Below, piece by piece: positions 11,378 through 12,328 of a stretch of DNA of 64,000 nt. A model generated the notes under the pieces. The model was given only the letters and a program-made list of their open reading frames with translations, was not told the origin of the DNA and made no database searches. The position numbers were made by a program, and so were the translations under genes. Origin of the DNA: Octopus vulgaris (Eukaryota). Where the stretch lies: positions 96,162,001-96,226,000 of the forward strand of contig OX597824.1 in NCBI GenBank assembly GCA_951406725.2. Reading direction: 5' to 3'. Position 1 is the first letter of the stretch. Every line of letters starts with the position of its first letter.

Positions 11378-11828
11378 CTGTAGCCCACATTGTTACTGAG
11401 AATTCGCCTTCTAAAGTTTTAATCTGTACTTGCTTTTGTTCCCATTTCTTTGTAGCAGAGTTAGTGTCTAGCGTCAGTTCTCCACAATTTACAGCTGATG
11501 TCGATATCATATTTCGTGATTTATTGGCTCGTCTCTTGCCACCTTTGCCTTTCCGGGTGATGGTTGCTTCTTCTGTGGATATTTCAATCTCTGGAGCTGG
11601 TACGGGGATGCTGTCAGCATACACGAGGTTCGGATCACCAACCACCTCCTCACGAGTCTGCAGAACAATCTCTTCTTGGGCCGCTTCGGGTAATGGCTGG
11701 AGAGCAATCATGGGTTGCACTTCGACTGTATCGTCTGTGGTTTCCACCGTCTCGATGGGCATTTCAACGGGGATGGACTCCACCTCAACCTCTTGGATCT
11801 CCACTTCTGATCCTATAACCGACGCCAT
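11378..11828 (-). CDS. YY1: YY1 (Yin Yang 1 / pleiohomeotic ortholog) coding exon 1, including the REPO domain
   Basis: [23 protein letters not shown]...PMIALQPL...[14 protein letters not shown] segment...[24 protein letters not shown] matches the YY1 N-terminus and REPO domain. Donor ACAG|GTTTGT after 11378; 451 nt, ends in phase 1. Confidence 0.97.
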
Positions 11829-12246
11829 TTTGACTGCTTTCTTTCTATGACGCTTATGCTACACAGAAGTCGGAATCTCACTAACAAGACCACGTGACAC
11901 ACGCAGACACACACAGACACAAACACACTCACACATACACAGACTACAGCTAATGAATATTCATGACTTCGTTGCTGCTGCTGCTGCTGATTTTCGCTCG
12001 TAATTATTAACTTGCAGTTTCTTCTGTCCATCACTTGGAACTCATCCATTGAATGAAACGGTTAGTAAATTAAATCCGGTCCGTCTTCCCTTCTCTGATC
12101 GCTATTATTATCACCATTTTTAATTACAACATCTAACATCTAAAACTTTTCGTTTCTTAAAGCACGAATTTATTTTTTTCCCATTTAACTTTTTTTTTCC
12201 TTTCTTTCATGAAATTCCACCAGGATTTAGCAGATTCTGTAACACT
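11829..12246. promoter_or_regulatory. Bidirectional promoter and 5'UTRs shared by YY1 and DEGS
   Basis: 418 bp between divergent ATGs, free of recognisable TEs. Contains an E-box CCACGTGAC (11890-11898), (CA)n and (CTG)n tracts. Non-coding upstream exons cannot be excluded. Confidence 0.75.
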
Positions 12247-12328
12247 ATGGGTGCCAAAGTTTCTAGGACAGATTTTGAGTGGTCTTACACCCAAGAACCA
12301 CATGCTTCACGGAGAAAAGCAATCATGG
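12247..12328 (+). CDS. DEGS1: Sphingolipid delta(4)-desaturase (DEGS1/DEGS2 family) coding exon 1
   Basis: [27 protein letters not shown], the DES N-terminal domain with a Gly2 myristoylation site; donor G|GTAAGG; 82 nt. Missed by the ORF track. Probably co-orthologous to vertebrate DEGS1 and DEGS2. Confidence 0.96.

Follow-up and report, generated by a model that had tools for sequence, protein, structure and literature searches.

A cluster of YY1 binding sites in the YY1 gene itself has been described from vertebrates, sea urchin, amphioxus and sea squirt (Kim 2009, PMC2743690), with YY1 binding demonstrated by ChIP, a loss of promoter activity upon mutation, and negative feedback. That study reported no cluster in Drosophila pho and, because the fly gene lacks one, judged the cluster to be unique to vertebrates. 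The autoregulation of YY1 through its intron was restated in PMC11794380, in an account from which invertebrates are absent, and in the text of PMC5010895 Yy1 appears only as an enriched motif. Among conserved non-coding DNA, Frith and Ni 2023 (PMC10735318) described 25 pan-bilaterian segments, nearly all at developmental genes; YY1 occurs zero times in the main text of that paper and once in its supplement, as a motif label, so the locus seemingly lies outside the 25 segments.

The pairing of YY1 with a DEGS gene is also on record. Table S1 of Touceda-Suarez et al. 2020 (PMC7530604) contains YY1=DEGS2 as genomic regulatory block (GRB) 86, kept in three of five non-vertebrate genomes (amphioxus, acorn worm, sea urchin, centipede, limpet) and coded 00111, with the species order of the digits unconfirmed. 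The same source treats DEGS1 and DEGS2 as ohnologs, of which DEGS1 is not linked to YY1, and holds a second ancient pair, YY1=SLC25A47, in row 78 of Table S1. As YY1 has no occurrence in the main text of that paper, the microsynteny was already known, though as a table row only, and it is not new here. In the table of Robert 2022 (PMC8851819), the pair falls in a ‘Vertebrata novel’ block and the amphioxus DEGS in a different block, while in the supplements of Schmidbaur 2022 (PMC9023564), where gene identifiers are perhaps unnamed, YY1 occurs once, as a motif name, and the term DEGS is absent.

The DNA analyzed here, referred to as the window, is a 64,000-nt stretch of Octopus vulgaris contig OX597824.1, in which the layout and splicing of both genes were observed directly. 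YY1 lies on the minus strand, with coding exon 1 at 11378..11828 (451 nt, followed by GT and a phase-1 intron; supported by YY1-type protein matches), exon 2 at 3825..3981 (supported by spliced contigs and protein identity), and exon 3 at 127..184, which enters the first zinc finger, the remaining exons lying past the left end of the window. The three exons (11828-11378, 3981-3825, 184-127) reproduce residues 1-222 of the Octopus vulgaris YY1 exactly, and an alternative exon of 84 nt (2080..2163, minus strand) corresponds to a longer isoform in the records of O. bimaculoides and Argonauta. Exon 1, identical (100%) to the records of O. vulgaris, O. sinensis, and O. bimaculoides, ends immediately past the REPO segment, which matches YY1 of PDB 4c5i (E=1.3e-9); in the zinc-finger region 109 of 110 residues are identical between octopus and three vertebrates. 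DEGS lies on the plus strand, with coding exon 1 at 12247..12328 (82 nt, followed by GT; supported by contigs and a domain match), exon 2 at 31987..32729 (743 nt, the desaturase core), and exon 3 at 36914..37060, which reaches the stop codon. The product of 323 aa carries the Pfam domains Lipid_DES and FA_desaturase and matches the O. vulgaris DES1-like protein at 323/323, that of O. sinensis at 320/323, and that of O. bimaculoides at 314/323 positions.

Several other features of the window were observed. Within YY1 intron 1, a MITE-like insertion (9557-9793; one copy within the window) possesses 41-nt terminal inverted repeats (98%) and inner 38-nt inverted arms, and is bordered on both sides by copies of a 28-nt direct repeat (9529-9556, 9794-9821), perfect and of exceptional length for a target duplication. 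A long CAA/AAC-type trinucleotide repeat with a poly-Q or poly-N open frame (56244-56487) is likely a microsatellite, and the open frames at 14783-15517, 24830-25315, 54599-55143, and 57086-57544, located in DEGS intron 1 and downstream, appear by eye to be decayed retroelement fragments.

The start codons of the two genes (11828 and 12247) are divergent and separated by a spacer of 418 nt (11829..12246) that is likely a bidirectional promoter with overlapping 5' UTRs. In each of two sequencing runs (X14 and X8, from two studies with two organism labels) one contig reaches from the exon 1/2 junction of YY1 (11377) to that of DEGS (12328), leaving both first introns uncovered, and the splice between YY1 exons 1 and 2 is also present in contigs of both runs. 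Neither strand nor start site nor level can be read from these contigs, and coverage of two genes by one contig does not amount to a single transcript; as spliced sequences that span the gap they indicate that the 5' ends of YY1 and DEGS likely overlap. The contig from X8 further skips a plus-strand GT..AG intron in the DEGS 5' UTR (12061..12223), which places the beginning of DEGS transcription to the left of 12061. With an ATG at 11963 (135 nt from that of YY1), a donor at 12000, and the acceptor of the 12061..12223 intron, the window also reproduces a DEGS isoform of O. sinensis. Taken together, YY1 and DEGS likely overlap or abut at their 5' ends on one promoter in octopus. The observed/expected CpG ratio is 0.82-1.08 across 8001-14000, spacer included, and 0.12-0.64 in the remaining 2-kb bins.

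Spacers at three other loci measured 217, 417, and 555 nt (L001, L006, and L067), and no long conserved sequence was seen in the spacer across the loci compared, where recurrence was confined to short motifs, none of them present at every locus. Upstream of the YY1 ATG (window ~11890-11965; L001, L003, L006, L014, L015), a ATATTCAT word, which we take to be POU-like, and a TCACGTG E-box recur in some loci. A motif scan placed a perfect YY1 motif over the start codon of YY1 itself (11824..11831, minus strand); the start codon also lies inside a YY1 motif in L001, L003, L006, L009, L013, and L014, and the start context ATGGCG is common to most protostome YY1 loci.

The preliminary description of this DNA had named YY1 (minus strand) and DEGS (plus strand) as divergent neighbors at 11378..12328, an interval that comprises exactly both first coding exons, and had proposed that the two genes stayed adjacent and divergent since the protostome-deuterostome ancestor. 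Linkage elsewhere was explored with a metagenome scan, covering 53 of 64 parts, that recovered at least 68 YY1 loci. DEGS exon 1 occurred upstream of and divergent from YY1 in five of the 68 listed loci, one bivalve (L001), two annelid-like (L002, L006), and two unassigned (L024, L067). Among the 19 listed loci with at least 2 kb of upstream sequence, it was present in four and absent in 15; loci without it include termite, ant, thrips-like, coral, and two annelid-like loci (~3 kb), though the absence of DEGS within a few kb upstream is compatible with a linkage farther away. Record numbers, a proxy for adjacency that carries no strand, were compared for 28 named species that have both proteins and were picked by eye, and those of YY1 and DEGS were at most three apart in 11 of the 28 (O. 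vulgaris, Sinanodonta, Nucella, Lingula, Capitella, Priapulus, Strigamia, Chamberlinius, Saccoglossus, Ptychodera, and Callorhinchus). The scaffolds holding both genes measure 170,625 nt in Priapulus and 93,203 nt in Saccoglossus. For a further 12 species the records share just a scaffold or chromosome length, in four insects (Cryptotermes, Zootermopsis, Cimex, Lycorma) the genes are on separate scaffolds, and Schistocerca, counted among the 28, is ambiguous.

The YY1-DEGS pair is ancient. Adjacency is supported in intermediate lineages, namely molluscs, a brachiopod, an annelid, a priapulid, myriapods, hemichordates, and a cartilaginous fish, and divergence at the DNA level extends to five loci besides the window; the idea of uninterrupted adjacency, however, does not hold for the four insects with separate scaffolds, and DEGS exon 1 is absent at 15 of the 19 listed loci whose upstream sequence spans 2 kb or more. 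In human, DEGS2 and YY1 presumably lie on opposite strands. The preliminary description had placed the two as neighbors at 14q32.2 tens of kb apart, and they are indeed consecutive on chromosome 14 (78,822 nt apart; PMC7530604, Table S3) at that location (PMC2042987). In a DEGS tree of 34 rows, the bivalve L001 joins heterodont bivalves (100/99), L002 falls beside Lingula and annelids (98/85), and L067 takes no resolved position (86/68); having no vertebrate rows, this tree cannot discriminate DEGS1 from DEGS2. At L067 (3035-8623), DEGS has at least three extra introns inside the region that forms one octopus exon, and the head-to-head link to a divergent YY1 is kept. The ant protein P0082 is a gene model that fuses YY1 with a sugar-phosphate exchanger, a hint of another neighbor in ants. 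For this known pair, octopus adds its survival despite the rearrangement of coleoid genomes and a probable overlapping promoter.

A stronger result than the gene pair is a cluster of YY1 motifs in YY1 intron 1, beyond the interval named in the preliminary description, which had overlooked it. The element (10988..11087, minus strand), ~290-390 nt past the donor, consists of a T-rich box (11076-11087) followed by six GCCAT cores. Given as plus-strand starts of the 5-nt core and read in the direction of YY1, these are core 1 at 11061 (forward), core 2 at 11037 (forward, perfect GCCATnTT), core 3 at 11021 (reverse, perfect), core 4 at 11004 (reverse), core 5 at 10997 (reverse), and core 6 at 10991 (forward, perfect); a further perfect motif in the same intron (11170..11177, minus strand) is not within the aligned element. 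The clustering was directly observed: seven [CG]GCCAT cores, of which four are perfect GCCATnTT, occur in 10991-11177, compared to means of 0.35 cores and 0.10 perfect sites in dinucleotide shuffles of 10878-11377 (0/5000 each). Seven cores per 200 nt occurred in 0/20000 trials of uniform placement, and the rest of the window contains at most one perfect site or two [CG]GCCAT cores per 200 nt. Controls were drawn from the 64-kb window and the examined loci, and no such motifs occurred in the first 700 nt of DEGS intron 1 in the window, L001, L002, or L006. The element is non-coding, being intronic and uncovered by spliced contigs. In two DNA runs (X11 and X7) it was partly covered or uncovered, and the organisms are too closely related for a selection test.

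Conservation was explored in 54 listed loci and the window, together 55 genomic sequences that include a donor and form 41 groups by shared words, with five long contigs searched within the extracted stretches only. The element was detected at E<0.001 in 13 of the 41 groups, ten of which built the profile, the other three being L061, L024, and the fish locus L058; the lineages include octopus, a bivalve, annelid-like loci, termites, and ants. In 26 groups the profile search did not detect it, and 18 of these are one divergent worm-like set. A set of worm-like loci (L031-L034, L036-L041, L044-L047, L049, L050, L055-L057, L060, L062, L065, and L066) possesses an altered REPO segment, weak similarity in exon 2, and no intron-1 element, such that protein and element appear to have diverged jointly in one lineage.

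The spacing of the cores is nearly fixed, at 24, 16, 17, and 13 nt in octopus (one extra core skipped) and the bivalve and 23, 14, 17, and 13 nt in the termite. Profiles built across lineages were used as a guard against circularity, and a search of 415,058 nt with a profile from insects only recovered the element of octopus with E=3.1e-13, compared to E=2 for the best match in the reversed control. In a null model that kept the 12-nt motif windows in place and shuffled the remainder over 1000 rounds, octopus scored 53.0 bits (null, 26.7+/-4.2; 0/1000) and the termite 65.3 bits (null, 30.9+/-4.0; 0/1000), so the similarity exceeds that of the motifs alone; L061 gave 0/1000 and L024 22/1000. 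Alignable conservation among protostomes is thus a direct observation, and the case for homology of the element within protostomes, as judged from these alignments, is strong. The element and the DEGS link occur together in octopus, L001, L002, L006, and L024. The element was also observed directly in the termite L012 and the ant L005, where 9-10 kb upstream contain no DEGS exon 1, and at L067 the DEGS link is present and the element undetected. Pair and element can thus occur apart, and the element follows YY1.

The vertebrate comparison consists of a single fish locus in a local database (L058, vertebrate by protein), which matched the profile at E=8.3e-6, at 0.0032 with octopus excluded, and at 0.47 when the profile came from insects alone; reversed controls gave E=2 or weaker at best. 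It scored 28.9 bits against the motif-fixed null (18.9+/-3.5; 7/1000 with the protostome profile, 5/1000 with the spiralian, and 131/1000 with the insect profile). At the second site octopus and this fish have the same 17-nt word (11033..11049, minus strand), compared to exact words of 9-12 nt for loci lacking the element. The order forward, forward, reverse, reverse occurs in octopus, L001, L003, L009, L013, L014, L020, and the fish, whose sites run forward-forward-reverse-reverse-reverse, the third being imperfect, as in the pattern of Kim 2009. The final site of the cluster points forward in octopus and in the majority of protostome loci, and reverse in the fish. It is quite probable, on these similarities, that the protostome element is homologous to the vertebrate cluster, and a pan-bilaterian distribution of the intron-1 element is likely. 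In two coral groups, a motif cluster occurs early in intron 2 (E 0.006-0.05; motif-fixed null, 165/1000 and 68/1000), and its putative homology to the intron-1 element is unproven. At the coral loci (L023, L026-L028; L026 is 99% identical to Oculina) intron 1 is ~130 nt long, and the distance of the cluster to the exon 1 donor resembles that of bilaterians.

We consider it fairly probable that an entangled shared promoter holds the YY1-DEGS pair and that the intron-1 cluster is an inherited self-feedback element of YY1. With both genes on one promoter and with overlapping 5' ends, YY1 and DEGS would be kept together through entanglement, since a breakpoint within the short shared region would harm both genes, and the pair would part once DEGS acquires a promoter of its own in some lineage, as may have occurred in insects, or once the gap widens, as in human (79 kb). 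DEGS would then most likely be a passenger on a housekeeping promoter and no functional partner of Polycomb. The preliminary description had suggested shared cis-regulation between a Polycomb-recruiting factor and ceramide synthesis, of which the shared promoter is likely in octopus given the bridging contigs, whereas the Polycomb-ceramide purpose is unsupported and disagrees with the separate scaffolds of the four insects. That the pair was kept for co-regulation of YY1 and ceramide synthesis, with the promoter and possibly the cluster setting both genes, agrees with the very short spacer and bridged transcripts, with a cluster ~0.9-1.2 kb off the DEGS 5' end, and with a linkage long-lasting across bilaterians. 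This purpose is nonetheless decidedly unlikely, as the genes lie on separate scaffolds in the four insects, the element is retained at loci with no DEGS close by, the human genes are 78.8 kb apart with the ohnolog DEGS1 unlinked (PMC7530604), and the divergent neighbor of mouse Yy1, ~2 kb upstream, is the lncRNA Linc-Yy1 (PMC5465081). Even less probable is a genomic regulatory block in which long-range YY1 enhancers in DEGS introns lock a bystander in place: the conserved element sits in YY1, not DEGS, and DEGS intron 1, long in octopus (19.7 kb), is just ~1-3 kb in L002 and L001. The pair is filed as a putative block in PMC7530604 by gene class and synteny, with no enhancers demonstrated for it there.

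An inherited element also has to be weighed against the independent origin of the protostome, deuterostome, and coral clusters, with self-binding sites near the YY1 promoter repeatedly favored. The motifs do account for a large part of the 28.9 bits scored by the fish (null mean, 18.9), and the corals fail the motif-fixed null and carry their cluster in intron 2. Within protostomes convergence is very unlikely (0/1000), and between octopus and fish the same intron, a similar distance to the donor, the same order of the first sites, and 17 identical nucleotides that exceed the motif length, together with the low counts under the null for two profiles (7/1000 and 5/1000), leave independent origin as a whole an unlikely account. 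That the inverted motifs form a conserved pre-mRNA hairpin, and are not DNA binding sites, was suggested by the inverted repeat of octopus sites 2 and 3 and a 5-pair stem from RNAalifold. All five pairs are invariant and the covariation term is 0, the variable motif position loses pairing across species, and no Rfam match was found over the element, all of which make this reading highly implausible; with zero covariation it was rejected.

For the preferred self-feedback element, YY1 protein would bind the cluster, supporting its own transcription at a normal level and damping it in excess, following the vertebrate results (Kim 2009). By analogy, there is a good probability that the element works as a YY1 self-feedback sensor in octopus, and the self-feedback of YY1 probably long predates the vertebrates. 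If true, the published vertebrate origin of the cluster would be overturned and the state of Drosophila pho would be a loss. Because the function of the vertebrate element was tested by ChIP, mutagenesis, and feedback, its presence in molluscs and insects permits a direct test of circuit continuity, and opens the question of whether one feedback circuit has persisted unchanged since the bilaterian ancestor. A broader joint reading, of one ancestral YY1 self-sensing element older than the cnidarian-bilaterian split with a possible tie to DEGS, is rather doubtful. Were it true, the element, still alignable in intron 1 between octopus, termite, and fish and located in intron 2 in corals, would be among the oldest functional cis-elements known, and the shared promoter may make the output of dihydroceramide desaturase depend on YY1 dose wherever the head-to-head pair persists.

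Compared with described gene pairs, YY1-DEGS is the same pair as GRB 86 of PMC7530604, with DEGS1 as the unlinked ohnolog, but the entry in that table gives no orientation, cephalopod, or promoter anatomy, and the 418-nt octopus spacer is easier to reconcile with a bidirectional promoter than with a long-range regulatory block. It more closely resembles the 5'-5' pairs of Irimia et al. 2012 (PMC3514665), such as HSPE1-HSPD1, which are defined there by linkage in at least four lineages with few intervening genes, divergent orientation, and a spacer <1 kb. YY1-DEGS is linked in at least four lineages, is divergent in the window, L001, L002, L006, L024, and L067, and has spacers of 418, 217, 417, and 555 nt, human (78,822 nt) being the exception. 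Unlike those pairs, it has no demonstrated co-expression or shared pathway.

The intron-1 element sits in the same place as the cluster of Kim 2009 (PMC2743690), near the start of intron 1, and likewise comprises several GCCATnTT-type sites in ~100 nt, sites 1-2 pointing one way and those after them the other. Where that cluster has 3-5 sites, octopus has six cores, three of them perfect, within 120 nt. The fish locus follows the published pattern and is alignable with octopus. Unlike that pattern, in which the outer sites are opposite and five sites end in three alike, the last octopus site is forward and the outer two are not opposite, so the element is filed as a variant; the conserved spacers and T-rich box of protostome elements set them further apart from the published description. 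By its sequence, the intron-1 element is a protostome variant, apparently not described before, of the known vertebrate element, with no earlier report of it from protostomes in the text of open papers, to which the search was confined. Vertebrate-protostome alignable regulatory DNA is rare. Like the segments of Frith and Ni 2023 (PMC10735318), the element is neither coding nor a known RNA gene, and its vertebrate-protostome similarity, above the reversed control for one vertebrate locus in a local database, lies at the same place and orientation in homologous genes; unlike those segments, it belongs to the gene of a ubiquitous regulator and is made of that regulator's own binding motifs.
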